Shown: piece after piece, positions 8,531 through 53,729 of the stretch
How the letters are laid out: every line of letters starts with the position of its first letter
Position numbering within the stretch: the first letter of the stretch is position 1
From: Pelomyxa schiedti
Taxonomy: Eukaryota; Protista; Evosea
DNA length: 53,729 nt
Assembly (NCBI GenBank): GCA_020536535.1
Contig: JAHLWZ010000290.1
Span: 3,171 to 56,899 of the forward strand
Direction of reading: 5' to 3'
Position numbers and translations under genes: made by a program
Notes under the pieces: model-generated
Seen by the model: the letters and a program-made list of their open reading frames with translations, nothing else
Told to the model about the DNA's origin: nothing
The model's database searches: none

Positions 8531-11500
8531 TTACTCGTGGGTTAGCAACAACTCTCTAGATACTTGGGCCATTTGAAGTGGGGTACAAGCTCCACTCTTC
8601 TTTACCACAGAGTTGACATCGGCACCATATCTAACTAAAATCTTTGCCACATCCACATAACTAGAAGTTGTTAGAATTTCCCAAAAAGAGACAAGTGTAC
8701 CCCTTTGATGAAGCCAAATGTAGGGGTGCCATCTTCTTTTTGTTAAGCATATCCACAGTGGCTCCCTGCTGAATCAGTACTTCAGCAACATCAGCCATTC
8801 CAGACTGAGCTGAAATTGATGAGGAAATTAAGGAAAAGTGCAAACCCACCTGCTATGTGCAGTGCAGTATTCCCAAAATCATTCTTGGAATCAATTATTT
8901 TCTTCGCCCCAGCAACTTTGGCTAGGACTTTAACAACTTCTTGGTTATCTGAAGGAGTGTGAAACAAGGTATTTCTCCCAATGTGTGACCTTTTTCATGG
9001 ACTGCAACATGAAGAGGGTTCTGCCCACCAGAATTTGAGATCGTAACATCGGCGCCATGATCCAAAAGTAACCGAACCTAAAAACTTGAGATAGAGGAGA
9101 ACATGGAAAAGCTACCATCTCACAGTCACAGTTAGCAGAGGCAACGTGAAGAGGTGTAGAACGTGTGACACTCTTTTCCGCGTTGGTAAAATACAAGAAG
9201 GCATTATTGTACCGGTAAATTTGGGTTGGCACCAGCTTTTAGAAGGAGCTTAACCTGATTCATATTTTTATTTTCTGCTGCAACATGGAGTGCACTATGA
9301 CATATTAAAAAGAAAAGAAAAGAATATTATGACTGAACGTGGACTCAGAGCCAAAATCCAGTATTTGCTTTGAAAAACTTGCGTTTAGAAGAGATTCCAT
9401 CAGTTCATCATTACGGGTTTGGGCCGCTGAAGAGGCATAAAACCAAATCCTTTCATTTTCACATCTTAAAAGCTAACCTATGTGTAAAACCGTATTGGAA
9501 CCACGGCTGAACATATTAGCCAATACTGCAACATCTGCAAGTAGTTAGTATTTCCCTTGCTTGGGATTAGACGGACCAAGTGATAAAAAGGACTGCACAG
9601 ATTCTAGTTTGCCCGAGGTGCATGCTTGGGAAAATGCTCGTGCCAGATTTGGGTCGGGTGTTTTTGATATGCTTGCCTATTGGATGTTAGTTGGGACGTC
9701 TTATTCTTTTTTAACATACTGTAAATAGATTAATAGTATCTCTGTTGCCACTTCGGGCAGCTACTTCAACAGCCTTAATGAAGGTGAATGTCACAAGGAC
9801 TTTGGATAACAACATACAGTAGCGCCATTCTCGTTTGCGAAAGGATTAGCCCCTGAATCTAGTAATAGCTTGGCAACACTTGCATGACCGCCTGCACAAG
9901 CTAGTCCAAGGGCACTAGATCTATTTTAGATGTTTGAAATAATGCACCAGGCAAGTCGTAGACCTCTGTGGGCCAGAGGCATTTGAATTTGTTGCCACCA
10001 TTGTGGCTCCATAAGATAATAACAGTTTCGTAAGTGGAGCATTTCTTAAGGGTGTTACTAACTGGATCACAAAGTAATAAGTTCTACCCCTTGATTGCTG
10101 CAACATGCAAAGGTGTTTGGCCATTTCTGCGTGTATTTATGGCATTTGGATTGCCTCCTAAACCTAGTATTAGTACGGCAACTTGTTCACTTCCACGTAA
10201 TGCTGCAATATGCAGAGGGGTCTATGGAGATATTAGTTATTACTCATGAACTCTGAGGGAAGAACCTGTTGATGAAAGTTGTAGACAGAGCAATCTAATT
10301 TGCCTTCTTTTATCAGCCAGGAAGCAATTTCTGGACGATCAAACCAGGCAGCTACATGCAGTGGCGTCCACTTTCCCGACCAAGGGAAAGTTTTGCTTGG
10401 AGCTGCAGTCAGGGTGGCAAACTGTGCTACTGAGGTGGCTCCAACTATGCGCTGGAGGTCACTAAGCTTTCCTATGATGACGTCAACAGGGCATCCACAG
10501 TTACAAGACACTACCTTTCTCAATGGAGGAAAAGAATCTCGATACAACAGCTGGTGCCAAGCTTGAAGATGACTTGAATTCAGTTAAATCGGTTGGTGGT
10601 GGTGTCACCGGGCGTGATGATGTGGGTGTTGTTACAACTGGAGTCGAATCTGGCTGCACTGTTGGCGTGGATGGAGGTGTTACTGGTCTCACAGGTAAGT
10701 CCACTTGCTGCTGTTGAGGTGGTAGTGGTGGCGTTGTTACAGGTGGGGGTGTGCTTGGCTTTGATGGAGGGGTGATTTGAGTAGTAGTAGTACATGAAAC
10801 CGTTGGTGCTGGAAGCACCTTAACGGATGGGGAAGGTGCAGAAGCGGTAGTAGTTTGTTGTTGCTGCAAAACTGGCTGCGAAGCTGGAATGGGGGGTAAT
10901 GGCACAGGTGTTTTATTTGATTTGGAGGCCAACATAGACCAAGAACAAGATGGCTTTGGAACCACAGGCTCAACAGGAGGCAATGAACTTGGCAGGGGTG
11001 TTGGTTCCACAACCACAATGGCAACAGAAACAGAAGCAGAAGTAGAAGAAGTGGTAATTGTGGAGGATACAACATCAGAACCGATCGTCCCAGATTCTGC
11101 AGCACTGATCAGTGTTTTGCGTTTCCCATAACGCGATGCCGACCCCAAGCTGGGTGTCCCTGTTTTTTTTGCCGAGGACACTGTAGTTGTCAGTGTAATT
11201 CCCTCGTCACGAGACGGTAATGATAGCGGGAGAGCATTTTCCTTGGGCGTTTGCGTGGGACACGGGTGTCCCACGTCTTTGGGCTCAGAAGCGCACACAT
11301 TGGGCTGCGAAATTTGTTGCCGAGGATGTTGGCGTCGAGGAAATTGATGTGGGGGCTGAGGGATTGTGGGGTCGAACAAAACTTTGCTTGGCGACACCGC
11401 TCTGGGTCGTCGTGGTACTTTTCGGGCTGCATTCGTCCCGACACTTTTTGAGGGTGCAGGAGCTGATGAGGGGGCAGGCCGATTGCCTAAGGAGGCGGAC

Positions 11501-11541
11501 AGGAAGGGGTTACTTTGTGTGAGGGTGCTGAAGAACTGCAT
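8531..11541 (-). CDS. Ankyrin-repeat protein with a long Ser/Thr/Pro-rich low-complexity N-terminal region; multi-exon.
   Basis: The S/T/P-rich ORF at 10501..11601 has its first ATG (MQFFSTL..) at 11541 and ends at the donor GAGAAAG|GTAGTG. Downstream, several ANK repeats are encoded at 10547-8531 (TPLHVAAWFDRPEIASWLIKEGKLD; TPLHVASANCDCEMV; MAPLHLASSKG|YVDVAKILVRYGADVNSVVKKSGACTPLQMA...stop). Confidence 0.65.
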
Positions 11542-11881
11542 CGTCCCTTGGGTAGAAGTGATGATAAGGGTTTTTTCAACTTTTGTTTCGGGGAGCTCCA
11601 CTCAAACGGTGAGAAAGTATAAAAATGAACGGGTTTGAGTTTGAAACACGGCTGGTGACATTCCGGTACACGAACGGAAATGCACACAGATACACGTGTC
11701 TGATGGATCTGCTATGTGGAGAAACCAACTTCTGGCAGTTTGTTCCTTACATCAATTTCTGCCGCCAGAATCAAAAGACGAGGAACCGAGGAACCCTCAG
11801 GTTTCAGCTGTTACAGGAACGTTAGAAGCAATCACTTCTCCGGAAGACCACTCCACAGTTCATACAACATAGTCAACTGAC

Positions 11882-12521
11882 ATGGGGACCGTATTGGTCA
11901 AGTTATGGCGGTTTGAGTTCACAAGGAAGAACATGAAAATAGTGGTGCTGGGTCTGAATGGCGCTGGAAAGACAACAATATTGAGGCAATTGCAGATGGG
12001 CGAAATAGCGACCACTACTCATGGAGGTGGTTTCGAGGTGGAGACCGTTGCATTCAGGAGCCTCACCTTCAACGCGTGGGATGTTAGTAACGAAAATGTG
12101 ACAATGCTCTGGAGACAGGTACTACCTTTCCCTCAACAGAGACTACAATGTAATGCCGCAATACATGAACACACAGAATAAGATATCAATCAAATGCTAA
12201 TTTGCTAACCACACCTGGCAGTATTTCCAGAACACACAAGGAATCATATTCGTAGTTGACACGACGGATCGTCCGCGGATCACAGAGGCCTGCGACGCAC
12301 TCCGCAGAATTCTCGCCGAAGACGGTCTCCGCAACGCCGGGCTTCTGATTTTCGCCAACAAGCAAGATATGGCCAATGTAATGAGTGTGGCTGAGATCAC
12401 CCAAAAGCTCGACCTTAACTCCCTGAGGAACCGAAGGTGGTTCGTTCAGGACTCATGTGCTATTTCTGGCGACGGGCTCTACGCGGGCCTCGACTGGCTC
12501 TCCCATAATCTCGGGGACTAG
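11882..12521 (+). CDS. ARF-like small GTPase (ARL family); 2 exons, join(11882..12118,12222..12521), 178 aa.
   Basis: Exon 1 is [36 protein letters not shown]...[16 protein letters not shown] with a GT donor at 12119. Exon 2 follows the AG at 12220-21 and reads [20 protein letters not shown]...[19 protein letters not shown]...[22 protein letters not shown] stop. The G1 (GxxxxGKT), G4 (NKQD) and G5 (SCA) motifs are present. Confidence 0.9.
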
Positions 12522-12640
12522 TTGTACCCTTCACTACTACTACTACTCCGTGCCCCAGCATGCCACATCACCTAATTTATGTCCGTTCGTTGTACAAAAA
12601 AAAATAAAAACCAAAGCACAAACGAGAAGAAGAGAGGGCA

Positions 12641-14152
12641 ATGTTTGTAGTAGGGACGTGGTCGTGTGTGGTTTGGTGCCTCACATTGGGATCTGCTTTT
12701 GTGTTAAGTGTACGTGCCTCTTGTTGGTGGGGTTTTTTTTCTCCCTTTTCCTGAGGTTGTTTCATTAACAGCCCCCTTTTTTTTTTTTGACATAACACAG
12801 TTGTACATGTGGCCTGGAGCTTTGCATGCGGACAGGGATGCTCCACAGGAAATTAAAAAACGGCTCATCAGTGTATCAATAGTATCTGTGGCTTCCTTGT
12901 GTGGCTTCTACTTGTTTTGGATTTACCCAGCTTCTGGAAAAATGGTGCCTCTATTGTCTTTTGTTTTCCTTTTTTTTTGTTGGTTTTACTCCTTTTTATG
13001 AACCGTTCTCGTTTCTAAGCTCCCATTGCGTTCTTTTAGTATGTCTTTCAATAAACCATTTGTCACAGTCTACAGGCTTTTGGCAGTTTATAGGCCTGTG
13101 GCCAAATTCACCTTGGCTTGGTATTATTGTCCCAACAGCCCTTACCGTGTTCCTATTCTTTGGCCCCCTGGTGCTCTCACTTATGTCTCCCGACATTTGT
13201 GGAGTACCGTATAGGTGTAAGCTGGGACAAAGGTTTCAAGATAAGTTGCGGGGATGGCTATATGCACTCCGTTTGCAACTGGAGTATGAAGCCACCAATA
13301 TTATATCTTGGCGTACTTTTGTTATGGTTTATACCATTTTCATTCCCATTACATGTAACGCACTTCTTCCAAGGGACCCCTCACGGAAGAAATTGTTTTC
13401 CGTGGCTGTATGATTCCCATTTTGTGTGCTTCAGGCCTTTCTATTCAGGCTGCGTGCTTCATGTCACCACTGGTTTTTGGACTTGGTGCGTTCAGCCTTA
13501 CACCAGCATTAGTCTATAAAACTCTTCACAAATCCTAAAACCCTTTTTATAGCTCATGTGCACCATGGAATACAAAGGGTTGTAACAAAAAAGGCACCAA
13601 TTCTGGAGGTTATTCTGGGTACAAGTATGCAAAAAGAACTTTTCCTCAGATCGGTAACTGTACTTTTTAGTTGTTCAGTTGACTTACACCACTATTTTTG
13701 GTGCATACACGTCATTTATTCTTATTCGCACAGGTACCCTCTACTACCCTCAACCACTCATGTAACAGGATACAGGGAATCTCTATGCCTGTATATTGGC
13801 GCACTCATTTTGTAACGTTATGGGTCTTCCACCATTTCAAGAAGCAATTGAACATAAATACCGATTTTGTGTGTTATCTTGTTCCCTACTAAACTCTGGA
13901 GTAACACTTTCCAGTGATTTGTACATCTTTTGTTATTGGGCTTGTTGGATTCTTCTTGCTGCTATTCCCACTGACCAACCCACTGTGGTACAGCTCCGTC
14001 TTTGTAGAATTGTTGGAAGGAAGACCAATATAAACAAACAAAAAAAAAAGAGAAGTTCACTCAAGTTGTTTGTTGTTTGTATTATTATTGCCACACACAC
14101 AAAACAAATACTCCCATCCCAAACTGCCTTCCCCTCCCTCTCCCTCCCATAA
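12641..14152 (+). CDS. RCE1: CAAX prenyl protease 2 (RCE1, CPBP family), multi-exon; the 3' end is approximate.
   Basis: Exon 1 is 12641..12709 (MFVVGTWSCVVWCLTLGSAFVLS) with a GTACGT donor. Exon 2 starts at 12801 (LYMWPGALHADRDAPQEIKKRLISVSIVS...). Later exons encode ...LGIIVPTALTVFLFFGPLVLSLMS..., ...EEIVFRGCMIPILCASGL.., AHVHHGIQRVVTKKAPILE, LTYTTIFGAYTSFILIRT and GNLYACILAHSFCNVMGLPPFQEAIEH.... The EExxFR, FxxxH and HSxxN catalytic motifs are conserved, and the order and spacing match human RCE1. Confidence 0.85.
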
Positions 14153-25814: not shown

Positions 25815-27918
25815 TCAAGAATATTTCACCCGTAGGATGCACATAGGCCTTTCCTCACGAGGGACCAACATCCAAGCCCTGTCATAAGCCTTGTAGTACT
25901 TGTCTAGGACTGAGTGCTCAATGGCGGGAGTGTGTTTGACAAGCGGGCGATTTAATGTGCATTTTGTTCCGTCACAGCACCTGTAAACATTGCCACACAC
26001 AGTGCAAAAGTTACGTGACATCCAAACAAAAGATACATGTTTCCACTTTTATGTATAAACAAGGTAAAGGCAAGAAAAAAGGATCATAAGGAAGGTACCT
26101 TGGTTTGGTCACAATCTCCTCCAATCTCATTCAAAAAGTGGCTCAAAACTGATCTTGCATTCTTAGACCACGTTACACTGCTGTTCAACAATGCTTGCTA
26201 GTTTTGTGACTCAGTGGGTCGGTGGAACAGATGAGAAAAGCGCACCTTCCAACAGGAACTGGAACGCCCTGCATGGTACCTTTTTTTCGAAAAAGAAGGT
26301 TATTCACCCGATATTGTGGGTGATATGATGGCAAACCAAAATCGGGAAGTCCGTTGAATCCTCCCAAGGGCTTGCACATCAAGAAGCGCCAGCACTCCGG
26401 CAGTTTCGGCTTGATACAGTGCTGCCATTGCTGTGATGGAATCATCGATCCTGATGATCTCGTTACAAAATTGTTCTGAAAATACGGAGTTTTACTCAAT
26501 AGATGCAGAAACCATCTGTCGTGTATCTATGGCCCCACTTGGAGGCACCTTCTCGAATTCCATGACAGGCATGGATGCACGTAGCGCGTCCGTTGAGCCG
26601 ATAATTTCTGAATATTTTGACACTGAGATGGACCCCACAGCTTGATTTGGGAACAACTTCCAGTATCCTGACGTGGTGTGTTAAAAAAGAAAAAAAAACA
26701 AAAATGCAAGAAATTGCAGATACCGTGGATGTGATCGTACTCTGAACTCTGATAGTGCTTCCAGAGGTCACACTCTTTGTTTGGCAGAACTCCACCCAGT
26801 CTCACCATTTCAGCCACCAACTCACTTTGGTCCAAAATAACAGCAAGAATCATTGGAGTGAAAATTCCTTCATAACTACGAAGCTGGAAGCTGCAAGAAG
26901 CATTGGGATTCGCCCCGAGGGTTAAAAACTTCATTGCCAGCTCTCGCTGGTTTCTCAATATTGCCATGAAAAGTGGTGTTTTTTCATTTGCCGTCTCCGA
27001 ATTGAGGAATGCAGAGAAATTTGGATGATTGACGAGAATATCAAGAAGCTCCTTGTTTGTTGCACTCCAGCGCGGGTACTGTGTTGCGTTCACAAAAGCA
27101 CGGCCAAGGCCCTTGTGGAACACCTGACAGAGATACTGCAAAACATCTGGACGAGCTTCCTCACAACCACAGTACACTGCAATTGGCAGTTTGGCGTCAA
27201 GAGCCTCGATGAATTTATTCCCGCCCCACTTTTCATTCACCAGCAGTTGTATGACTTCCAAATTGTTGTTGTGCATGACCATTTCCAGGGGAGAGTCGGG
27301 CTGAGGGGGCGTTTTATTGAATAGCAAGGTAGCCTTAGTTGGAACATCAAAACGAGAAAGTATCATTCCAATGACATCCGGCTGTAGCTTACCAATACAC
27401 AAGTGCATAGCCGTGACCTTTCTGCCATCCACCGAGCACCACAACCCCGGATTTGCACCGAAGGGTTCCAGCAAGAATCTGGCCACTTCCACATGCCCCT
27501 CATACACAGCACAAGCAAATGCAGTCCCTTCATCCCACTGGTTCCAAGTGCACATGGAATCCGCCATCCGGGAGAAAAAATCTCGCCGGCAAGGCCTTTC
27601 GTGCCACGCATCGTGCACTATCTTCAGCTCCTCGAGGTGCCCGAGAACCGCGCATACGAACATGACATTGATTCGCACCAATTTTTTCGCGCCGTGGCCT
27701 GTTGACGTGTCTGGGACTTTGGTCTTGCACTCGAATGCCCCTGGTTCGTGGCCCACGGGTGTCCGAGCAGCCAACTTGGCCAATTTCCCAGGCCGCGCCT
27801 TGGCCGCGGCTGTGAGGAGCTTGTTGCCCTTCACAACCGAAATGAGGCTGGCTCGTTTGGCGGCATAATTTGCAGAGTGTTGTTGATTGTGGGTGTCGGT
27901 TCCCACTGTCTGTCCCAT
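25815..27918 (-). CDS. Ankyrin-repeat protein with an N-terminal MGQTVGT (Gly2 myristoylation consensus) and a C-terminal Cys-rich module; paralog 1 of a tandem pair. Six exons: join(27918..26724,26667..26496,26450..26337,26279..26246,26197..26099,26045..25815), 614 aa.
   Basis: Exon 1 is track ORF 26527..27918 (ANK repeats, for example TPLFMAILRNQRELAMKFLTLGANPNA). The other exons are ...DHIHG|(G)YWKLFPNQAVGSISVSKYSEIIGSTDALRASMPVMEFEKVPPSGAIDTRQMVSASI|(E)IDDSITAMAALYQAETAGVLALLDVQALGRIQRTSRF(W)|YHAGRSSSCWK|QALLNSSVTWSKNARSVLSHFLNEIGGDCDQTK|WKHVSFVWMSRNFCTVCGNVYRCCDGTKCTLNRPLVKHTPAIEHSV...KYS stop. All junctions are GT..AG and all phases close, and paralog 2 has the same exon pattern. Confidence 0.75.
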
Positions 27919-27998: not shown

Positions 27999-30169
27999 TC
28001 ATGACTGATCAGACATAGCATATCTGTCAAAAAACCCAGAAGGTGTCTCAACAACGCCTCCAAACAGTGAAAGAAACTCGGAGATCACTGCGGTCTTTTT
28101 TTCCTGAGGAACTACCAAACTCCAAGCCAGGTCATATGTCTGGTAGTATGTGTGAAGGGCTGGGTACTCAATGGCGGGAGTGTGACTGACACGCGGGCGA
28201 TTTACTGCGCATTTTGTTCCATCACAGCACCGGTAAGCATAGCCACACCCCGTGCAATAGTTCCGCGCCATCCAAACAAAAGATACATGCTTCCACTTGG
28301 GTGTTTTTCGAATGTTAAACACCAGGGAACAGTACTAGAAGGTACCTTGATTTGGTCACAATCTTCAATCTCATTCAAAAAGTGGCTGAAAATAATCCTT
28401 GCATTCTGAGACCACGTCGCACTGCTGTTCAACAATGCTTTCTAAGGTTTTTTTTTTTTGTTTTTGGTTTTTTTTGTGCTTCGCCAAACCGTTGGAAAAC
28501 ATACCTTCCAACATGAATTGGAACGCCCCACATGGTACCTTTTTGAAAAATGATTATGTTTTTGATGTTACAATGAAGGAGCATAAACCAAAATCGGGAA
28601 GTCTGTTGAATCCTCCCAAGGGATTGAACATCAAGAAGCGCAAGTACTCCGGCAATTTCAGCTTGATACAGTGCCGCCATTGCTGTGATGGAATCATCGA
28701 TCCTGGCAGAACAGTTATTAGTGGTTCTCAAAATCTCGGAGTTTTACCCAACAGATGCAGAAACCATCTCTCGTGTGTGTGAAGGCAGTTTCTCGAATTC
28801 CATGACAGGCATGGATGCACGGAGCGCGTCTGTCGAGCCGATAATTTCTGAATATTTTGACACTGAGATGGACCCCACAGCTTGATGTGGGAGCAACTTC
28901 AAGTATTCTGATGGGTTTGTTAAAAAAACATAAAAACGAAAGGAAATTACAGACACCGTGGATGTGATCGTACTCTGAACTCTGATAGTGCCGCCAGAGG
29001 TCAGAATTTTTACTTGGCAGAACTCCACCCAGTCTCGCCATTTCAGCCACCAACTCACTTTGGTCCAAAATAACAGCAAGAATCATTGGAGTGAAAATTC
29101 CCTCATAACTACGAAGCTGGAAGCTGCACGGAGCATTGGGATTTGCCCCGAGGGTTAAAAACTTCATTGCCAGCTCTCGGTGGTTTCTCAATATTGCCAT
29201 GAAAAGCGGGGTTCTTCTGTTTTCAGTCTCCGAATTGAGGGACTCGGTGAAATTTGGGTGATTGACGAGGATATCGAGAAGCTCCTTGTTTGTTGCACTC
29301 CAGCGCGGGTACTGTGTTGCGTTCACAAAAGCGCGGCCAAGGCCCTTGTGGAACACCTGACAGAGATACTGCAAAACGTCTGGACGAGCTTCCTCACAAC
29401 CACAGTACACTGCAATTGGCAGTTTGGCGTCAAGAGCCTCGATGAATTTATTCCCGCCCCACTTTTCATTCACCAGCAGTTGTATGACTTCCAAATTGTT
29501 GATGCACATGGCCATTTTCAGGGGAGAGTTAGCCCCAGCGGACGTTTCACATAGCAATTTAACTCTGGCTGGAATATCGCAAGCAGATAGAATCATGTCA
29601 ATGACATCCGGTTGCAGCCTCCTAATACAGAAATGCAGAGCCGTTAATTTGTTACCTAGCTTGTCACCGAGCACATCGCACTCCAACCGCGGATTTGCGC
29701 GGCACTTTTCCAGCAAGAATCTCGCCACTTCCGCATGCCCCTCATTCACAGCACAAGCAAATGCGGTCCCTTCATACCACTGTCTCCAAGTGCACATGGA
29801 ATCCACCAACAACACAGAAAAAGTAGTTTTGTCCTCCCAACAGACCCTTTCGTGCCAGGCATTGTGCACTATTTTTAGCTCCTCGAGGTGTCCCAGAGCA
29901 GCGCAAACAAACATAAGATTGAGTCGCACCAATTTTTTCGCGCCGTTGCCTTTCGACGTGTCCGGGATATTGTTCTCGATCCGACATGCCTCTATTTCAT
30001 GGCCCACGGGTGTCCGAGCAGCCAACTTGGCCAATTTCTCAGGTTGCGCCTTGGCCGCGGCTGTGAGGAGCTTGTTGCCCTTCACAGCCGAAATGAGGCT
30101 GGCTCGTTTGGCGGCATAATTTGCAGAGTGTTGTTGATTGTGGGTGTCGGTTCCCACTGTCTGTCCCAT
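27999..30169 (-). CDS. Paralog 2 of the N-myristoylation-motif ankyrin / Cys-rich family, a tandem duplicate of 25815-27918; multi-exon. Exon 1 is 30169..28957; the terminal exon ends at 27999.
   Basis: Track ORF 28718..30169 (MGQTVGTDTHNQQHSANYAAKRASLISAVKGNKLLTAAAKAQPEKL...). It is about 85-90% nucleotide identity to paralog 1 across exons, with divergent introns. The terminal exon reads ...WKHVSFVWMARNYCTGCGYAYRCCDGTKCAVNRPRVSHTPAIEYP.... Confidence 0.7.
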
Positions 30170-32106: not shown

Positions 32107-33767
32107 TTACAGTGTAGTATCCCTAATACCGTCACTGACAAAGAATTTTCCGTCAGAACCTACCTCTCGGCTTTGCTGAAGGGAAATCCTTTGGTTCTCC
32201 TCTGAGGAGACCCGGAACGGATAGTACAGAGTGAATCCCAGAGAATTGTTATCCACAGGATCAGTGGGAGCAGGAGACAGGGAAGTTTTGTATTGCATTG
32301 CCCGATACGGCGTATTTGTGGATGTTATCCATTGCGACACAATGAAATGCAAGTCACTCAACGTGGATAATGAGTGAAGGAAACCGCCATAAAGCTGCGG
32401 GACTTCAGTTCCCGTGAGCATCACTTTCTCGGCGCTCCAAATGCCATCTATTTGAGAAGCTGTTCTCATGACAATTGCATAGCGCGATGGCGAAAAGTAT
32501 GACAACACCCAAGTCTTGTTGAAGAGTCGGAGAGAAAGTTCACCAAGTGGTCCTGTGAAGATTATTAAAAACCTCCAAAACGCATTTCAGTTTCTACCTG
32601 GAAGAATGGGAGTTGCAGGTTGTCCCCATTGCCATCCATTTTCCTCAGTCCAACCCCATGGTATATATGCCGATTGTACGAGAAGTTGCTTTTCTGGCAC
32701 TTTCTGGAGTATCATTCCTTCAGTCCGCACTCGGCCAAACGCACATGATATGATGTAGATATAGCCATCATTTCCATTACACATTGTCCACATTTGATGC
32801 ATGTCACCATTCCCATCATTCCACCACACTGGCGATTGCACTGTCCAGTCCTCCCCGTAGTTGGTACTTGTAGCAAGCCCTGCATAGTTCGTTGCCCAGT
32901 TTGGGTCGGACCAGGAGTGCACACTCATAAATGACAGATAGTTTACATCAGAAACTGTGATTCCATCCCCAGGGATTACAGTAACTTCGTATTGCCCATA
33001 CTTATTGTAGCCATTTTGAGCATTGGGAAGTATTTGCTTTGCCCTACCACTGGATTCTGATCCCGTACCAGCACAATTATCCCAAGTTATGCCCCCATCA
33101 AGTGGATATGTATGCGACCTGCACATCACAGGCGACCTCCACCCTGTACCTCCTGCCTGGTACTCGTCAAATGTATCGCCAAAGAAAAAACCTACCAATA
33201 AAAACATGTAAAGTAAGGCTCAAAAAAATCGCCTCCTACTTACCGAAAGCCCCATTCTGGAACATAAACGGCTCTCCCAGGTCAGTGCCTTCAAATTCGA
33301 ACTGAGTTGTGACTCCTGGGCCAGTGATATCTTTAACCTTAAGGTAGACGTCACCAAATATTGGAAGGGTATTACCGGCAACCTACTGTAAACCTACCTT
33401 CAAAGTTAATTGAGGAGCCACAGGGTCATATTGTAGTTGAGTCTCCAAACTCGCGGTAGGTGTACCAACTGATATCTCATCCGCAACAAGATAAGCCGCG
33501 CTAGCAGGGAAGTGTGGGTGATACCAAGTCCTATTCTATACAGCCATCAAAAAGGGTAACCAGGCACCCTTACTATCCATTATACTTATTGGAGGCAGGG
33601 CGCCTTACGCTGTTGTAATTCAAGCGGACCACTGCCCCACGTCGCACCGGCTCGCCTCGCACGTTCGTCGTAGTGAACAAAAGTTCCGCCCCAGGTACGC
33701 GGGCCAGCTCCGCGTGCGACAACCACGCCACACTGAGGCAGCACACAACCGCCACCAAGCTTCTCAT
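32107..33767 (-). CDS. Secreted protein (signal peptide MRSLVAVVCCLSVAWLSHAE) with a large Trp/Gly/Asn-rich, probably beta-propeller-like domain; at least 5 exons. Weak resemblance to the DUF4185 / glycosyl-hydrolase-like fold; this is my guess.
   Basis: Exons read ...RLNYNS|NRTWYHPHFPASAAYLVADEISVGTPTASLETQLQYDPVAPQLTLK|VAGNTLPIFGDVYLKVKDITGPGVTTQFEFEGTDLGEPFMFQNGAFG|...GDTFDEYQAGGTGWRSPVMCRSHTYPLDGGITWDNCAGTGS...WTMCNGNDGYIYIISCAFGRVRTEGMILQKVPEKQLLVQSAYIPWGW...|GPLGELSLRLFNKTWVLSYFSPSRYAIVMRTASQIDGIWSAEKVMLTGTEVPQLYGGFLHSLS.... Donors GTAAGG, GTAGGT and GTAAGT. The first exon is GC-rich. Confidence 0.5.
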
Positions 33768-41970: not shown

Positions 41971-42182
41971 TCCCGGTTGTGAGGTGATGTGGGCGAATCT
42001 CTTAACGGATTAATCTCAGAAAGGCGCTGGCCACAACCAAATAGAAACAAGCCCTGGGCTCCGTTTCTTTTCTATTCGGACTTTTTTCGTTGATTTACTC
42101 TTCTTTTGAGTTTCGCTGCGGGGAAGCCATTCTTCAGGGTTTTTTCTTTTTTTTTACAGGCATAAATAAATACAACCAAAGC

Positions 42183-45100
42183 ATGGCCACGAGACCGGTG
42201 ACGTTCTTAGTGAACGGGAAATTGCATTCCGTAGCGAATGCCAACCCTTTGGAATCTTTGCTTACTTATTTGCATGAAGGTATGTTTCTTCTGTATTCGT
42301 TGGGCCTTTTTTTTTTTTCCTAACACCAGTGTTGTATCGTTAACACGTTGCAGCTGGAATAAAGGGAACCAAATTGGGTTGTGGCGAAGGCGGCTGTGGT
42401 GCTTGCACAGTTGTCGTGTCTTTCTTCAACAAATCACTTGGCTCTGTTTGGTAATTGCTCTACCCTTGGCCTTGGTTATATTTATGTGGCTTAGCCATAG
42501 AGCTGTAAACGCTTGTTTAATGCCCCTTTGTGCTGCTGATGGCACTGCTATAACAACTATCGAGGGTCTCAAGTCAACCACTGCATTGCACCCCATTCAG
42601 GTTTTCTTTCTCTGTAATGTACAATGCTTTGACAACCATATAATTTATAGGAACGAATGGTCAAGTCCAACGCTATCCAATGTGGGTTTTGTACTCCAGG
42701 CATTATAATGGCCCTATATGCGTACCTTCTGGAGCACCCAAATGCTACAGAGTCTTCTTTGCAATCTTGTCTAGATGGAAATTTGTGCAGGTGCACCGGG
42801 TACAGACCAATTATCGATGTCGCAAAAAGTGTATGTATACCCTTTTACTCATAACTCTAAAGCACACCAATAGTTCGCTCGGAAAACCTGCCTTGGTACT
42901 TGCACCACAACAGACATTGAGGTCGTTCCCTTTTCTCAGGAATGTACTTTAATGTAATTCAAGACTCTTCCTGTTGCTCCACCATCCATACCAGTGGAGT
43001 TTCTTACAGAAGCGAGGACTCCGCTCTTTGCTTCAACTCCCCAATGCTCGTGGTTTGTTCCACAGACACTCTCAGAGCTTCTTGAACTCAAGGCATTGAA
43101 CAAATTCCTTTTCCTTCCCTCTATCCTCATTTTCCCCAGAGGCTGCACCCTAAAGCCGAAATTGTTGTAGGAAACACGGAAGTAGGGATCTTCAATCATT
43201 TTAAGGGTTCATACCCAGGGCATATCATTTACCCTGCTAACATTCCGGAGCTTCTTTCTGTGAGTGATATACACTGTTTGCTTTGTAACATCTTTGCAGT
43301 TCTCCACCACAGAGGACGGTGCCTTCATTGGGGCCGCTCTCTCTTTGACGGATCTTGAAATCAAATTGGAGAGTCTTATTGCATCAATGGATGTATTTCT
43401 CCAGTTCACTAAAATGCATCTGATTTCTGTAAAGAAAGCAAAGGCCAAAATTTTTGTGGAAATGATACGACAACTTGAACGTTTTGCTGGCCACCAGGTG
43501 CGTAATGTTGCATGTTTGGGTGCAAACTTGGCAACTGCCAGTCCAACTTCTGACATGAATCCCATTCTTCTCGCCTCGGTACAGTTTTGCTTTTTTTGGG
43601 CACACATTTCTCATACCAATTAGGGAGCTGTGGTCCATGTTGCTTCTTCCACTGGAAAAAGAACAGTTAACATCTCGGACTGGTTTATTGGGTACAGAAA
43701 GGTAGCACTTGCTCCCGAAGAAGTCATTGTCAGTATATGTAGGACCCACTCTAATATTTTCTCGCACTCAGCCTCTTTTAGTTGTACCTTTTACAAAGCC
43801 AAATGAATTCGTCAGTGCTTTTAAGCAATCCCGACGGCTTCACGATGATATTGCTGTTGTAACAGCCTGCTTCCGAGTTACCCTGCAAGAAGTAATATCT
43901 ATGGAGAAAAGGATATATTAACGTATTTGAAGGTTCCAAATGAACCAGCCCCCAGTAGTGTAACTGCAACATCAGCACCAATTTTAAGGTGGGATAGTGC
44001 CTCCTTCAATGCTGCAGTGGCGTCTGGATCAGGATTTGTTGCGCAGCCCCCTTCTCAGTCACTGTTTCCCCCGACCAATAAGAAATGGGTAGTGCAATCT
44101 TGCTCCCTAGCCTTTGGCGCTATGGATGCCCGAACTCGCCTGTATTTTATTTTTCCAATTTTCTTTTTTAATTTCTCCTTCAGTGCCTCCAGTACTGGTC
44201 AGTTCCTAACAGGCAAATCTTGGGATTTCTCTATTCTTCCAGGGGTCATACGTGCATTTGCCACAGTAAGTCAATTTATTTCCTGTTGTTTTCTAATGTG
44301 TTAGGATTTTCCAATTGCCGCAAAAGTGCCTGGTGGTATGCCTGAATACCGTCGCACAATGACAGGCAGTTTGTTCTTCAAGGTACATAAAATGTTGCAC
44401 TCCAACCAGAACTCAGTCTCTTTCCAAGTTCTTCATGGACGTTTATGCCAATATCCACGGCTCCACTTCAGTTCCACCCCAGTATCTCTCAGCTGCGAAG
44501 AAATCTTTTGATCGAGCAGTGATGAAAAGTGTTGTTGACTTTGATTGTGCAACCCCCAAGTGGTAGATTCTACTAGCCCGACTCTCCCCTCCACTGATAA
44601 TACTAATAAAGCCCAACTGATGTTGTTGGAACTCCTGTGACCCACATCTGTGCTGATAAACTTGCAACTGGAGAAGGTTTTGACATCTTAATTTCACCAC
44701 AAGTAATTTCCTTGAAGCTGTTTTTGCATCCGATGTTGATGCACCATATCATGCAGTGATGATACAGAGCTCCAAGGCACATGCAAGGATTGTGTACGCA
44801 CTAAGATGATTTGTTGCATGACATGATTTATTTCTACCAGGAGTATTGATGCTACTAAGGCACTTGCAATGGAAGGTGTTCTTCGTGTTTTCACTGCCAA
44901 AGATGTTCCTGGTACAAATGTTTTCCCTGCCACCAAGGATGAAGAAGTCTTTGCCAGCTCCGAGGTTTTATGCGTGGGTAGGCGTTTGACGAACTTTATC
45001 TTCCCTTGGTAACTCTCCTTTTTTTTAGGCTACCCAGTTGGTGTTGTTGTTGCCAGGACCCACGAGATTGCCCGCAATGCAGCTCGGTTGGTTCAAGTGC

Positions 45101-47736
45101 AATATGAAGAGTTACCGGCAGTTTTAACCATCGATGTGCGTTAGAACTAGCAAATAACCCATCTCATTTTTCTAGGATGCAATTAGGACAAATTCCTGGT
45201 TAGCTCCACCAATTGTGTATGAAACAGGTGATATTAACGCGGGCTTCAAGGCATCTGATCACGTCATTGAAGGTCAACCACAAAGTATTTCCATAGAAGT
45301 AACTGTGAGCAGGTGAAATGTCTGTTAATGGACAAGAACACTTCTATATGGAAACCAACGTTGTGGTCGCTACACCTCGTGAAGATGAAATTGAACTCTT
45401 CTGTTCGACCCAAAATACCTCAAAAACCCAGTCCAGTGTTGCAACAGTACTGGGAATTCCTTCGAACGCTGTAACAGTGAAGGTAGTGATGACATTGACT
45501 GTATTTCCTTAATCTCCTTTAGTGCAAACGTGCTGGTGGAGGCTTTGGAGGCAAGGAAACCCGGAATATATTCGTTGCTGTTGCATGTGCCGTTCCTGCG
45601 TACATAATGAAGAAACCAATTAAATTGTGGATGGATCGTGACGTGGATATGTCAATCACTGGCACCCGACACCCTTTCCTGTGCAGGTACAAGGTCGGTT
45701 TTATGAACAGTGGAAAGCTTGTTGCCGCCGATTTTACTCTCTACAGCAATTGTGGTTACTCACTGGATCTTTCTATTCCCGTAATGTCACGGTAGATATC
45801 AAACCGGCAGATACTAAAGCTAATAGTTTTGTTAAGAGCCCTTTTCCATGTCGATAATGCATATTTCTTCGAAAATCTTCGTGCAACAGGACATATGGCC
45901 AAAACAAACAAGCCATCGAATACAGCGTAAATTCTTCTTCCTGTCATCTCTCATTGTAAGAATAATTACCAGTTTCCGTGGATTTGGCGCTCCTCAGGGA
46001 ATGTGTGTAACTGAGCAGATTATGATTAGGATAGCACAGATGCTTGCTAAGCCTGTGAATCCTCTAAGAGTTGGCACCCTCAAGAAGACTTCCTTCCCAC
46101 TAACTGTCACTACAGGAACTTAACTTCTACAAAGAAGGAGAAATGACCCACTATGGAATGCAGGTGAAAAACAATTTCATGGCTCGTGTTTGGGCAGAAC
46201 TTCTAGAAAAGAGCGAATTTAAGAAGAGAGAGTGAGCCTCCCTTTTTGTTTGATTCAAGTTCTAATACAACGAAAAGACATGAAGTGACCGTGTTCAATG
46301 CCCAGCAGCGATACAGGAAGCGTGGTATTGCTTGTATACCCGTTAAATTCGGTCTTGCCTTCACCCAAAGTGCACTGAACCAGGTACACCACACAGTTGA
46401 AACCTCTTTAATATCTTAACTCTAAAAAAGGCTGGCTCACTGGTTCACATCTACGTTGATGGCAGTGTTTTGATCTCTCACGGAGGCTGTGAAATTGGGC
46501 AAGGTCTTCATACAAAGATGGCGCAGGTGTGCTTTGCCTGAAAAATGTATTACTGTCCTTACATACACAGATTTGTTCTACGGCCCTAGGTATTCCACTC
46601 AGCATGGTGCGGGTAGGTGACACGAGCAGTGACAAAGTTCCAAACTCTTCACCCACTGCGGCTTCATCTCAGTCAGGTACTTTAGTTTAATTAACTGTGG
46701 TGTATGTAACACTATGTCACTTCAGATCTGAATGGCATGGCTGTACTGCTTGCCTGCACTGCTTTGAAGGAACGCCTGGAAAAATTCCGAGCGACTCTGC
46801 CCCCCACCCCCGAACCACTACCCTGGGACAAGGTACCAGCTGTAACCTTCTTGTCTTGACTAAATTTCCATTTTCCAGCTGGTGCAAGCAGCGTATGCAG
46901 CCAGGGTGGATCTATGCGCTCATGGATTCTATGAGACATCTGCGGTCAAATTCGATTTTAAGACAGGAAAGGGAAACCCGTTCTCCTACTTCGTTTTCGG
47001 TGCTGCCTGCTCTGAGGTAGAAATAGACACTCTCACAGGTTTGGTTTTGTTAGGTTGCAGCCCTTGAAATGACAGTGTGGTAGGAGATCACACGATCCTA
47101 AGAAGTGACGTAGTAATGGATATTGGGAAGAGTTTGAACCCAAGCATAGATATCGGCCAGGTGACAACACAACAGCCCCTTGTGTAATGGCATTTACTAT
47201 CTATTTAGATTGAGGGCGCATTCATTCAGGGCTCTGGGTGGTCCACTCTGGAAGAACTTGTCAATTTCCCCAATGGGTCATATTACACTCTGGGGCCATC
47301 AACCTACAAGATTCCAGGTACTTGGACACCCATGTATTGTGGACCTTACACTCTCCCAGGAGTTGTTGATGTGCCTTCCGACTTCAGGGTTTACATTTTA
47401 CGTGACGTTGAAAACCCTATGGCCGTTCACTCATCCAAAGGCATAGGGGAGCCCCCGTTGTTCCTAGGCCATTCCGTTTTCTTTGCAATCCAAAACGCAA
47501 TTACCAGTGCAAGGGCCGAAGAAGGAATACAAGGATTTTTCCAGATGTCTCTACCCGCCTCCTGTGAACAGATAAGACTCGCTTGCCGTGATGCCTTCAC
47601 CGATCCCACTCCAAATGGTATCAATCATCCTATTCCCCTTTCTCTCCTCACATACAAAACAGCCGGCATCAAGGGTGAATCCTGGACCACCGTAGAAAGC
47701 AGGCCTACTCCCGACGACCTCCACCAACTTCCCTGA
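42183..47736 (+). CDS. XDH: Xanthine dehydrogenase / aldehyde oxidase family molybdo-flavoenzyme; multi-exon.
   Basis: [55 protein letters not shown] (2Fe-2S ferredoxin) ... [25 protein letters not shown] ... [21 protein letters not shown]...[12 protein letters not shown] ... [30 protein letters not shown] (FAD domain) ... [16 protein letters not shown]...[11 protein letters not shown] ... [13 protein letters not shown] (Mo-pterin domain) ... [25 protein letters not shown]. Domain order matches vertebrate XDH. Confidence 0.9.
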
Positions 47737-47922
47737 AGCCTCTCCTTATCCAACAAACAAAAACCCCTCTTATAGATACCCTTTCCATAATAAAACTCTT
47801 TGTACCCTCAACACCATTTCCTTTTTCGCGCTCTCTTTTTCTTTCCCTGTTTCCGCCCGTTATCCAACCGTTATTTGGTAGCGAAAAACCGCGTCTCGTG
47901 CCTCTCAGCCCCATCAATTACA

Positions 47923-49758
47923 ATGACAGGCTGCCACAAGACCTTTGTTGTAGCAGTGTTGGTGGCCGTTCTGGTGGGTAGTTGTTGGTCACTTGACCCT
48001 GTGTGTGACACCACACGTGAATGGAGGGACGATTTGACCAGCAAGGTGCTGTCTACGTTGGTTGACAAGTACGGATACAGTGTGGCCGACCAGGGCATGT
48101 ATTACTACAACAAAGTCACTTCGTTTGGTGCAAGTGGTGAACAGGCCTATGGCGTATGTGTACATGTTGGCTTGGGCTGTTCACTGCATCTAACTTTCTT
48201 TTTTTTTTTTTTTTTTTTCTTCTTTACAGCTGTACAACCTTTCAAGGAGCATTATGCTTTGGGATGAATACCCAATTTGGAGGCAGTTGGGGAATGAGGC
48301 TATAATCTTTGTGGGTTGTACTCCTCCTCCTGCAAGGTTGCTTCTGATCCCTTATGGGTCACGCTAAAAATCACGCAGATATTTTGGGTGGCGGTCCTAC
48401 TTGCTATCCGACCCTCTTATTCGTTCACCTTTCACTAGAGGAGTCGATCCTGTGGTAAACTTATGTTATAACACCATTATGACCTTATATTGTCCAGCCT
48501 TGGACTGCTCTAGGTGATGTTTTGAATCAGTTTGTGATGGAAACTACACAAGGCACTAATTCATTCTCATCCACAATGGCCGTAGTAACTGTTGCGGACG
48601 GGTGTGTACCCTGTAGCACTTACATTATCTCATTTCTTGATTTTGTGCAGCACAACAGAAAGCGTAATCAAACAGGCTTTTCTTGACAACGGATTTCCTT
48701 ATGTCAATTCTGACAATATGCCCGGCCAATACATTGAATTTGGCCTCGAAAGTCCATCAGACACCTTCTTAATGGAGAATAGGTACGCATTCTTGTAAGT
48801 ATATTAGTATTTATTCCTTGTACAGAGTCTCCTGCTTCATAGATTCAGATCAGGGAGCATATTACCTCAACACAACGGCACCCATTTATTTGGTGAGACC
48901 GCCTTCCACTCAGGGGCTTAACCTGTACCCCCTGTTGGAGTACCGATCAACAGAAACTGGGATGGATGGTGTGCTAACTTCCAAAATGGAACCCCTTCTA
49001 AGAGGAATCACAGAGTCCTACCTAGAATCCAGTCTGGATCAGCTAGCGTCCCAAGTGGAACAATACTGGAACAACAAAAGATATAGACTCGTATCTACGA
49101 CCTTAATGGAATGGTGAGGCCCCAAAACAACCTAATATATCAAGAGTTAACAACAATTCCTCAACTCTAACCAGTACAACTAAACTAAGTGAACTAAATG
49201 TAGATAGAAGCAGTCACAAAAACACCACACACTGGACCCTAACTAACACTTACATTCCATAGGAAACCCGAAAACTGGACGGACTGCCTCATCAACCACG
49301 AATTCTGTGGCGGGATATCAACAGATGCCACATATGGTCATCTCCCGCGCCCCCTTATCGAGAACTACTTCGACAGCTCGTCGGACCGCTTCTACGTCTT
49401 CGTCGGAATCTCGCACTACAACGCCGGCCGCCGGGCGCAGTACACGTCGCTGGAGCTGTACAACGCCATGTACGTGCAGGTCGCGGGCGCCAGCGACGTG
49501 GCGTACAACCTCAGCGCGCGGGCGTACGAGCCCCCCGACGTGTCGTACGCGGACCAGATGTTCGCCGTCAGGTTCGCGAGGCGATGCGATGATGACGCCG
49601 CAACGTTCTGCGTGGAGGTACGGGAGGACGCACTGCCCGACGGCGACAAGTTCATGGCTTGGTCGAGGGCGTACCTCAGTCCTTACAGCTACACGCAACC
49701 CGATCCTGACGAGATCCTGTTCCCTCGAATGTTGCACTTCACCAAAATCCTTGGATAA
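47923..49758 (+). CDS. Secreted protein of unknown function (signal peptide MTGCHKTFVVAVLVAVLVGSCWS); about 7-8 exons. The last exon, 49263..49758, is strikingly GC-rich.
   Basis: Exon 1 is 47923..48153 with a GTATGT donor. Exon 2 starts at 48230 after a (T)22 tract (LYNLSRSIMLWDEYPIWRQLGNEAIIFV). Further exons are ..DILGGGPTCYPTLLFVHLSLEESIL(W), ..DVLNQFVMETTQGTNSF.., ..TTESVIKQAFLDNGFPYVNSDNMPGQYIEFGLESPSDTFLMENR and 48818..49113 (..YWNNKRYRLVSTTLMEW). The junction 49113|49263 (TG+G) recreates a Trp codon in frame, linking to KPENWTDCLINHEFCGGISTDATYGHLPRPLIENYFDSSSDRFYVFVGISHYNAGRRAQ... stop at 49758. Confidence 0.55.
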
Positions 49759-51129: not shown

Positions 51130-51874
51130 GGGTGCTTTCAAGGTGACACTCAGCCCTTTAAGATTCAACACACTGATTTTCTTAAATTAAAGACTCGAGG
51201 GTCGACGACTGAACTAGCATTGACAAAAGAAGATTTCCGGGCTGTGTGAAATGTGGTGTATCCAACAAGCCCAGCTTTTCTCCAGACTTCCACTGCCCAA
51301 CCAGCGGAACCGCGGATTCTTCACTGGTCACTCCCTTGAAGGTTGCTTTTGTTTCGCACATTCCAACTGGCTTACATCACAGTTATAGTTGTCGACAATG
51401 CAGAACCGGCACATCCTGGAATGATCTCGAGTACGCCATCACTCATAAAGTGCAGATTCAATAGGTATGCTTTGCTCTCTTATGAGGTCAAGGCATTGTG
51501 TTGCTTGTGCTAATACATGGATATTTTAAGATATCTTCAGCTTCATAGATTTCAGCCTTTTTTTTTTTTTTTTGAAAGGAGTTGCGCATAGAACGCAAAC
51601 CCCATCTAAACAAAAATTACACTGCTGGGCTCCCTTGCGGGATCCATACTGCAACCTCAGACTAGAGTGCTAAGTCCGAGGCTACAACAGCACACCAGTC
51701 CTTATTGATCAACGGTATGCACAGTCAGGTATGTATGAAGGAACACTTTGTCCTGTTGGGCGGTGAAATACCCCCGGTCCCTCCATCTGGGTTATGGGAA
51801 ACCCTGGAAATTACCCATAAGGGCAAAAAACCCGGGCGGGTGAAATTGCGATCACACTGAGGTGGAAAACCTTC

Positions 51875-52033
51875 ATACTTACCTGGTACTCACAGACGCT
51901 GATCAATGAGGGCGTTTTGTGTGTTGACGATCCCATTCCTGCACTCTGAGTGGGTTGTTGGCATGAGTCTCCGCAAGGGGATATCTAGTACACAATTTTT
52001 TCTAGTGGGGTGCGCGATTCTTCGCCGCCCTCC
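51875..52033 (+). ncRNA. U1 spliceosomal snRNA gene.
   Basis: The 5' end ATACTTACCTG is the invariant 5'-splice-site-pairing sequence. Stem-loop I loop CUGAUCAAUGAGG resembles the U1-70K site (GAUCACGAAGG). Stem-loop II loop AUUCCUGCACUCUG resembles the U1A site (AUUGCAC). An Sm site ACAAUUUUUUCUAGUGG and a terminal GC-rich hairpin GGGGUGCGCG..CGCCGCCCUCC are followed by a TTTTGT-rich region. A repeated GGGCGG(G)TGAAAT motif lies 40-110 nt upstream. Confidence 0.75.
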
Positions 52034-52821: not shown

Positions 52822-53191
52822 GCTTCTTCCTCTTTCAAAGGCCATTCACTCACATCTCCTGTACGTTGTCCAAGGCAGAAAACAAAACTATAATCACACT
52901 ACCTTGCCTCTCACCTTTCACTATGCCATTCCCACATTACCAAAGCCGAATCAAAATAAATAGGCACAGTTAATCGACCATTTCACTTGTTCTTTTTTAT
53001 CTCTTGTTTGTTGTGGCGAGACATGCGGCACTCGCCACATTGGTCTTTTGCTTCTGTGGAGTATATTTAGCTGTATGAACAGTCAAACTGATCTTTTTCC
53101 TTGAATGCAAAAGTGAAGAACAACGCTTGTTGTTGGTTCAACATGTTTCCGAGGTGACGAGAAAATTCCTTTTCGAAAAACTCGACGAGAG

Positions 53192-53729
53192 ATGGGACAA
53201 GCAGTGGGCACCCGTACCGGAAAAAGTAATTACCAGAACAACCAGGACAGCATCATCCCATTCGTGAAGGACAACGAGCTCCTCGCAGCGGCGGCCAAGG
53301 CCCAAGCCATCAAATTGTCCTGGTTGGTCTCTCGGACACCCGTGGGCCATGAGGAGGATGCTTGTTGGGCGCGCTCGTCGGGATTTTCCCTCAACGTGTT
53401 GTTTGTTTGTGCGTCTCTGGGACACCTCGAGGAGCTGATGACTGTGTACAATGCCTGGCACGAAACTCGTTGGTGGGAGGATCGCTTGGCACCTTCCGAG
53501 TGCAAATGGAACCAGTGGGATCCAGGGACCCCTTTGGCTTGTGCAGTGAACGAGGGGCACGTGCAAGTGGCGAGGTTCTTGATGGAAAAGTGTGGCCAAC
53601 GTCCGGAGAGCTGGTGCACTCTGGATGGAAAAAAGGTCACGGCTCTTCATTTGTGTGTTCAAAAGCAGCTGTTGGAGCTCATTGACCCGATTCTACAATC
53701 CGTTGGTGATCTGAAAAGGAGGGTTGATC
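53192..53729 (+). CDS. Third paralog (5' part, truncated by the window end) of the N-myristoylation-motif ankyrin family, in inverted orientation relative to the tandem pair.
   Basis: MGQAVGTRTGKSNYQNNQDSIIPFVKDNELLAAAAKAQAIKLSWLVSRTPVGHEEDACWARSSGFSLNVLFVCASLGHLEELMTVYNAWHETRWWEDRLAPSECKWNQWDPGTPLACAVNEGHVQVARFLMEKCGQRPESWCTLDGKKVTALHLCV... aligns residue by residue with the N-termini of the genes at 27918 and 30169. Confidence 0.7.
   Translation, partial: MGQAVGTRTGKSNYQNNQDSIIPFVKDNELLAAAAKAQAIKLSWLVSRTPVGHEEDACWARSSGFSLNVLFVCASLGHLEELMTVYNAWHETRWWEDRLAPSECKWNQWDPGTPLACAVNEGHVQVARFLMEKCGQRPESWCTLDGKKVTALHLCVQKQLLELIDPILQSVGDLKRRVD

Follow-up and report, generated by a model that had tools for sequence, protein, structure and literature searches.

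A 53,729-nt stretch of DNA from the anaerobic archamoeba Pelomyxa schiedti (contig JAHLWZ010000290.1, positions 3,171 to 56,899 of the forward strand; hereafter the window, in whose coordinates all positions are given) carries a two-exon gene of the ARF family at 11882-12521 on the plus strand. The gene is best read, with a probability of about 0.57, as a fast-evolved duplicate of Pelomyxa ARF1, a GTPase of membrane traffic, that would encode a nucleotide-binding, non-cycling ARF-like module, that is, an atypical or pseudo-GTPase. The motifs that hold guanine nucleotide (G1, G4 and G5) are intact, and those of the two switch regions (G2 and G3) are degenerate. The parts of the gene are placed as follows.

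11882..12118, plus strand: exon 1, codons 1-79, with Met-Gly2, the N-terminal segment, P-loop, degenerate switch I, interswitch and degenerate switch II
11951..11974, plus strand: G1/P-loop, G24-L-N-G-A-G-K-T31, intact, with G24, G29, K30 and T31 in invariant alignment columns
12011..12037, plus strand: degenerate switch I/G2, T44-T-T-H-G-G-G-F-E52 (ARF1: T-T-I-P-T-I-G-F-N), placed by alignments to ARF1
12077..12097, plus strand: degenerate G3/switch II, W66-D-V-S-N-E-N72 (ARF1: W-D-V-G-G-Q-D), placed by alignment to ARF1
12119..12221, plus strand: phase-0 intron of 103 nt, GT-AG (GTACTA...CAG), the sole donor/acceptor pair yielding a full-length ARF alignment
12222..12521, plus strand: exon 2, codons 80-178 and stop, beta4 through alpha5 with NKQD and SCA
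12357..12368, plus strand: G4, N125-K-Q-D128, intact, in invariant columns
12453..12461, plus strand: G5, S157-C-A159, intact, with C158 and A159 in invariant columns

The locus is a real, intact two-exon gene. Splicing 11882-12118 to 12222-12521 gives an open reading frame of 178 codons that ends in TAG (12519-12521), and an in-frame TAG lies four codons 5' of the ATG at 11882. The intron contains a branch-like TGCTAAC element 14 nt before its CAG acceptor, and the same 103-nt first intron is used by the deposited model of the gene, KAH3764374.1, whose residues 1-79 match exon 1 at 100%. Identity to human ARF1 is 44% for exon 1 and 65% for exon 2. The residues that contact the guanine base and the alpha- and beta-phosphates (K30, T31, D67, N125, K126, D128 and A159) are retained, Gly2 directly follows Met1, and the effector hydrophobic triad (F51, W66, Y80) is present. 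An earlier note on this DNA had described a 178-residue product with Gly2, intact P-loop, NKQD and SCA motifs, and a DxxGQ box destroyed within exon 1, away from the splice junction. All of this holds in the spliced protein, where WDVSNEN lies 21 nt inside exon 1; the loss of the switch-I threonine (T48) was overlooked in that note and is added here.

The damage extends over both switches. Relative to ARF1 WDVGGQDKIRPLWRHY, switch II carries G69S, G70N, Q71E and D72N, with Asp67 kept, and a one-residue deletion shortly after WDVSNEN leaves it without a counterpart of ARF1 K73. Relative to ARF1 GEIVTTIPTIGFNVE, switch I carries I46T, P47H, T48G, I49G and N52E, so that TIPTIGFN becomes TTHGGGFE and the threonine that in ARF1 serves Mg2+ and the gamma-phosphate is a glycine. 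Further changes on the switch surface are R75T and P76M (ARF1 numbering). As far as motifs can tell, the protein has kept its nucleotide-binding pocket and lost all three residues required for sensing and hydrolysing GTP (T48, G70 and Q71). Such a combination is rare. The first protein search returned 120 ARF matches, all of which have WDxGGQ and 118 of which have TIPT(I/S)GFN. An exhaustive HMMER search covering 1.84 billion cluster representatives yielded 148 for inspection, of which the deposited copy of the same gene alone has WDVSNEN; a few others show GGK, GGR or GGP, and none of them resembles SNEN; the motif is unique to this gene among 268 retrieved ARF-family sequences. An alternative exon or splice variant restoring DVGGQ, a possibility raised in the earlier note, is absent from the window: none of the in-frame GT..AG combinations of the gene yields the motif, and tblastn with ARF1 and with the switch-II peptide finds it nowhere else in the 53.7 kb. 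A compensated frameshift was also considered and rejected, as the other two frames across the motif hold stops or unrelated residues and no GGQ.

The Pfam Arf profile (PF00025) matches residues 14-175 over its positions 11-173 of 174, with 187.4 bits (cut-off 22.3, E 1.9e-55). Among solved structures rat/human ARF1 comes closest (E 2e-63), and in the PDB search the scores fall from ARF1 (216 bits) through ARF6 (179), ARL1 (155) and ARL5 (154) to ARL8 (148), with no ARL ranked above any ARF1, 4, 5 or 6 entry. The best 150 representatives of the exhaustive search are all ARF-like, at no more than 59% identity, and have ARF1-type motifs. Orthology to ARL13, ARL15, ARL16 or ARL10 is not indicated by the PDB and exhaustive searches. 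The earlier note had called the product an ARL and proposed comparing it with the ARF, ARL and SAR families; the ARF-family G domain is upheld by Pfam and the PDB, but the ARL label is not, since ARF1 scores best.

More specific marks point to an origin within the Pelomyxa lineage, the Arf1 orthogroup being taken here sensu Vargova et al. 2021 (PMC8358228). Among the 268 sequences, the N-terminal signature MG[ST]V[FL]xKL and the C-terminal WLSHNL are confined to six P. schiedti ARF1 copies and the ARF-like protein, and the same six copies are the top scorers for its last 39 residues (140-178). Because these signatures and best C-terminal matches are confined to the P. schiedti ARF1 copies, the gene reads as a Pelomyxa-lineage ARF1 duplicate that has evolved very fast, and not as an ancient ARL. 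Between P. schiedti ARF1 and the ARF1 of animals, fungi and other protists, identity is 78-88%; between P. schiedti ARF1 and the ARF-like protein it is 58%, with 75 differing amino acids scattered across the whole length. ARF1 has 127 alignment columns with a conservation of 95% or more, and the ARF-like protein departs from 43 of them. Departures are denser in the part encoded by exon 1, from beta1 to switch II (32 of 64 columns), than in that of exon 2 (11 of 63). The MxxE Golgi-targeting motif has become ILAE. Lineage-specific ARF duplications are common, and surveys of the family intentionally exclude any sequence whose motifs are disrupted (PMC8358228); genes of this kind are therefore under-reported. 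At least six distinct P. schiedti ARF1 proteins, about 98-99% identical, are found on different contigs; they represent either a multi-copy family or allelic or assembly redundancy, and would be raw material for a divergent copy.

How far selection has acted was gauged by a neutral-drift simulation that took a pseudo-ancestral coding sequence of P. schiedti ARF1 as its starting point and ran to the observed 42% protein divergence. A frame without a stop remains in 3.1% of the runs, and G1, G4 and G5 all survive in 0.9%; the ARF-like gene, with an open frame and all three motifs, matches a joint outcome seen in 0.075% of runs (P = 0.00075). Its amino acid replacements are also far more conservative than drift produces, with a mean BLOSUM62 score of +0.23 against a neutral -0.58 +/- 0.19 (maximum 0.10 in 4000 runs). 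Together with the region-specific divergence, the simulation shows that purifying selection has maintained fold and nucleotide pocket through most of the history of the lineage, a result that covers the long term and not very recent inactivation.

This bears on the alternative that survives best, a decaying duplicate, in which a recently formed pseudogene, or a gene whose constraint has been relaxed, has lost its switch motifs first and kept its reading frame open by chance. Such decay is made thinkable by the high redundancy that near-identical ARF1 copies imply, by the loss of essential catalytic residues, by the orphan status of the gene and by the lack of a clean stand-alone model from automated annotation. 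It is nevertheless unlikely, given the joint neutral probability and conservative replacements just described, the concentration of change in the exon-1 part, and the intact splice sites and homologous stop position.

The predicted structure agrees with the family assignment. AlphaFold2, given a 77-sequence alignment, returns an ARF fold with the interswitch typical of the family (predicted template modelling score 0.78), and the top Foldseek matches of the model are all ARF structures (template modelling score 0.82-0.89, root-mean-square deviation 1.7-2.4 A). Per-residue confidence (predicted local distance difference test, pLDDT) is 87-94 for residues 81-160 and 58-72 for residues 21-80; P. 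schiedti ARF1, run as a control with the same alignment, reaches 78-90 over residues 21-80. The model fits GDP-bound ARFs best (1.7-2.0 A) and GTP forms worse (about 4.2 A). This GDP-like conformation was rejected as evidence of the nucleotide state, because an identical GDP-type extra strand appears in the ARF1 control; it is the default of the predictor for ARFs, and uninformative on this point. The N-terminus of the protein resembles that of P. schiedti ARF1, and AlphaFold2 predicts no helix in the first 15 residues (pLDDT about 40).

The biochemistry expected from these losses can be framed by what the three residues do in other GTPases. Main-chain amides of the switch-I Thr and of the DxxG Gly reportedly grip the gamma-phosphate, in the universal switch ascribed to Vetter and Wittinghofer (2001). 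The hydroxyl of the switch-I Thr ligates Mg2+, and the Gln of DxxGQ positions the attacking water; ARF1 Q71L is GTPase-deficient. In Ras, replacement of the corresponding Gln by Glu (Q61E) does not abolish intrinsic hydrolysis. The Arf6 mutant T44N, altered at the position of ARF1 T48, binds GDP almost normally but GTP with low affinity (PMC6539230). In the Pelomyxa protein, selection would have kept the G-domain fold, the guanine-nucleotide pocket (P-loop Lys/Thr, Asp67, NKQD, SCA), the effector triad and Gly2, while the three elements through which the gamma-phosphate acts on conformation and catalysis are replaced (Thr48 by Gly, Gly70 by Asn, Gln71 by Glu), and switch II is one residue shorter. 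Judging from the motifs, a nucleotide would still be bound: GDP most probably, or else GTP with weak affinity. The protein would not undergo the canonical 'loaded-spring' GDP/GTP switch, in which interswitch and N-terminus toggle, nor would it be driven by Sec7 guanine nucleotide exchange factors (GEFs) or by GTPase-activating proteins of the ArfGAP type. With its switch surfaces altered (I46T, P47H, I49G, N52E, R75T, P76M), it would have lost its fit to Sec7 GEFs, ArfGAPs and GTP-state effectors, and it might serve as a membrane-associated adaptor or as a decoy for ARF partners.

PseudoGTPases have been divided into those that bind no nucleotide (class i), those that are GTP-bound without hydrolysis (class ii) and those with abnormal cycling (class iii), as the scheme of Stiegler and Boggon (2020) is outlined in PMC12722892. 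The Pelomyxa protein has the hallmark of this group, in that the G2 Thr and the G3 Gly and Gln are absent from an otherwise ARF-type fold. The intact G1, G4 and G5 argue against class i. Class ii is what a constitutively GTP-bound, GTPase-dead ARF would be, comparable to Rnd or RhoH, with loss of Gln71 blocking hydrolysis and leaving an active, membrane-bound and effector-binding protein. The replaced Gln71, a nucleotide pocket that makes binding plausible, and the retained triad and Gly2 are all compatible with it. However, the gamma-phosphate sensors are gone as well (T48G, G70N, shortened switch II), the GTP-state effector surface of switch I is radically altered (I46T, P47H, I49G, N52E), and a Gln-to-Glu change need not stop hydrolysis if Ras is a guide. 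T48G and the precedent of Arf6 T44N, which keeps GDP (PMC6539230), thus argue against class ii, and a permanently active state appears quite unlikely. The earlier note had offered a permanently GTP-bound ARL or a pseudo-GTPase; the second fits the sequence, whereas the first loses ground once T48 and G70 are seen to be lost too.

A more specific version of the non-cycling module can be put forward tentatively, and is rather doubtful as it stands: a spare ARF1 copy may have turned into a nucleotide-loaded, switch-dead module that sits constitutively on membranes, or that titrates ARF GEFs, GAPs or effectors independently of the cycle. If this were true, a 'dominant-negative-like' or scaffold ARF would have arisen in nature through erasure of G2 and G3 and preservation of G1, G4 and G5.

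Several observations tell against the reading of the gene as a selected, non-cycling module. Across residues 21-80, AlphaFold2 confidence is 15-20 pLDDT points below that of the ARF1 control. The N-terminal segment is not clearly amphipathic (hydrophobic moment 0.31, no better than shuffles), and membrane insertion via an amphipathic helix is uncertain, although Gly2, the myristoylation residue of ARFs, is kept. The exhaustive protein search and metagenome scans turned up no orthologue or paralogue sharing the switch changes. In the latter, six peptide 8-mers of the divergent segment brought up no confirmed relative, and WDVSNEN-xxx-LWR, written as a degenerate DNA pattern, had no match. A word-indexed protein search returned canonical ARF1s only, and nothing for the 47-residue divergent segment, but this search also missed KAH3764374.1, which is identical over that segment and present in the collection, and little weight can be given to its negatives. 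The genome derives from whole-genome-amplified material, namely single cells amplified by multiple displacement amplification and assembled with SPAdes --sc and Nanopore reads (PMC8887013). Finally, the sole public model joins the gene to a neighbouring one.

That model, KAH3764374.1 ('ADP-ribosylation factor 2 [Pelomyxa schiedti]', 341 amino acids, Arf plus Rce1-like PF02517), spans 11882-14030 on the plus strand. By tblastn mapping it is 100% identical to the ARF-like protein over residues 1-152, WDVSNEN included; the HMMER figure is 99% over query residues 1-153. It departs from the 178-residue product at a second intron.

12440..13214, plus strand: 'intron' of the fusion model, donor TG/GTTCGT and acceptor TATAG/G (slashes mark the splice points), GT-AG

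This 'intron' removes the C-terminus of the ARF domain (beta6, G5 and alpha5) and skips N-terminal Rce1-like exons. The Arf hidden Markov model consequently stops at position 151 of 174 with 156 bits in KAH3764374.1, against 173 of 174 with 187 bits in the 178-residue model. The 26 codons after the fusion donor are identical to the P. schiedti ARF1 C-terminus at 20 positions and end at the homologous stop. A direct alignment with human RCE1, entered as a hand-typed query, matches two open reading frames inside the 'intron' to the N-terminal part of that protein, with scores of 72 (shuffle maximum 47) and 58 (maximum 57), above all 500 shuffles; a Pfam search of the frames between the ARF-like and Rce1-like genes assigns them to no family. 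Because of the truncated Arf profile, the ARF1-like codons running to the homologous stop and the RCE1-like frames, KAH3764374.1 is probably a chimera of two genes, the ARF-like gene and an Rce1-like CAAX protease, that arose in annotation. A genuine fusion, with a truncated ARF-like domain on a CAAX-protease membrane domain, could appeal to the canonical GT-AG sites at 12440/13214 and to an annotation pipeline (Augustus, PASA and EVM) that drew on transcript evidence via PASA/EVM (PMC8887013), yet it would forfeit beta6, G5 and alpha5 of the G domain and is opposed by the ARF1-like codons after the donor and by the RCE1-like frames, which makes it very improbable. In practical terms, KAH3764374.1 should be split.

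An error of sequencing, assembly or whole-genome amplification in the switch regions of an ordinary ARF1 gene, for which the single-cell origin of the genome might speak, is scarcely credible, since the differences from P. schiedti ARF1 run over the entire protein, the G3 change alone needs at least 8 separate nucleotide substitutions and an in-frame 3-nt deletion, no frame shift recreates GGQ, and the frame, splice sites and other motifs are perfect.

As a non-cycling derivative of ARF1, the Pelomyxa protein invites comparison with its own paralogues and with several known systems. It shares with the P. schiedti ARF1 paralogues the fold, length, homologous stop, Gly2, P-loop, NKQD, (T/S)CA, YFQNTQGxIFVVD and the triad (F51/W66/Y81 in ARF1), as well as the lineage-specific termini MG[ST]V[FL]xKL and WLSHNLG. 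It is unlike them in its 58% identity, T48G, G69S, G70N, Q71E, the deletion, the rewritten switch I, and ILAE in place of MxxE. Substitutions made in the laboratory at the three critical positions yield GDP-preferring (T44N), hydrolysis-dead (Q71L) and conformationally locked (Ras G60A) proteins. Each of these engineered mutants (Arf6 T44N, PMC6539230; ARF1 Q71L; Ras G60A) alters one of the positions naturally replaced in the Pelomyxa protein; they are single changes, whereas the Pelomyxa gene combines all three with surrounding ones.

Human ARL10, ARL13A/B, ARL15 and ARL16 lack the switch-II glutamine, and several ARLs have been discussed as atypical or pseudoGTPases (PMC12722892). They resemble the Pelomyxa protein in being ARF-family G domains without the catalytic Gln (PMC12722892), but belong to ancient or metazoan ARL lineages, whereas the Pelomyxa protein looks like an ARF1-type duplicate of one species lineage and has lost the switch-I Thr and the DxxG Gly besides the Gln. 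ArlEM of eumicrosporean Microsporidia is a conserved putative ARF-family pseudoGTPase with a predicted N-terminal lipid anchor (PMC13393502). It is likewise a lineage-specific member of the family with mutated GTPase motifs that is read as a pseudoGTPase; however, it is extremely divergent, with most canonical motifs mutated, has been proposed for class i and is conserved clade-wide (PMC13393502), whereas the Pelomyxa gene has lost G2 and G3 alone, keeps G1, G4 and G5 perfect, and has no known orthologues. Another archamoeba, Entamoeba histolytica, has lineage-specific Arfs from ARF-family expansions, EhArfX1-X3 and others, some without assignable human or yeast orthologues (PMC8719317). EhArfX2 likewise lacks MxxE and keeps Gly2, but it has been studied as a working GTPase, and no loss of G2 or G3 is reported in PMC8719317.

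The Pelomyxa gene is probably a further case of the known pseudo-GTPase phenomenon in the ARF family and not a new kind of system. Its distinctive feature appears to be the combination, in a recent ARF1 derivative, of perfect G1, G4 and G5 with erased G2 and G3. Its value is modest and mostly local, as lineage-specific divergent small GTPases are ordinary. If expressed, it would be an ARF1-derived addition to the ARF-family pseudoGTPases (ARL13B, ARL15, ARL16, ArlEM) and a natural experiment in which all three ARF1 residues that couple to the gamma-phosphate have been removed while the pocket stayed under selection, and it could be used to ask what the ARF fold can do without switching.

The remainder of the window has the character of eukaryotic nuclear DNA, with two U1 small nuclear RNA (snRNA) genes and short GT-AG introns. 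Its other features are listed below.

10501-11601, minus strand: open frame of 366 codons, rich in Thr, Pro, Ser and Gln (mucin-like low complexity), no Pfam match
26527-27918, minus strand: ankyrin-repeat protein beginning MGQTVG... (Gly2), first of the tandem paralogues
28718-30169, minus strand: second ankyrin-repeat paralogue, MGQTVG...
32587-33207, minus strand: open reading frame with a strong DUF4185 match (E 1.4e-43)
about 42000-48300, plus strand: multi-exon gene resembling xanthine dehydrogenase/aldehyde oxidase
51575-51736, minus strand: U1 snRNA gene, above the Rfam gathering threshold
51875-52033, plus strand: U1 snRNA gene, divergent from the preceding one at a distance of about 140 bp, above the same threshold
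53117-53728, plus strand: third ankyrin-repeat paralogue, a related partial copy at the window end

The mucin-like frame adjoins the ARF-like gene upstream, on the opposite strand. The first two ankyrin-repeat paralogues are 79% identical, and the set looks like a local expansion of a gene family. For the xanthine dehydrogenase-like gene, a C-terminal fragment (47209-47733) reaches at most 56% identity in the word-indexed protein search, with animal xanthine dehydrogenases among the named matches. DUF4185 is mostly bacterial and fungal, and lateral acquisition of the corresponding frame in Pelomyxa is possible. The two U1 copies match in just 74% of alignment columns, and the minus-strand copy, which starts AUACAUACCUG where the canonical RNA has AUACUUACCUG, is changed in the segment that pairs with the 5' splice site and is possibly a variant U1.

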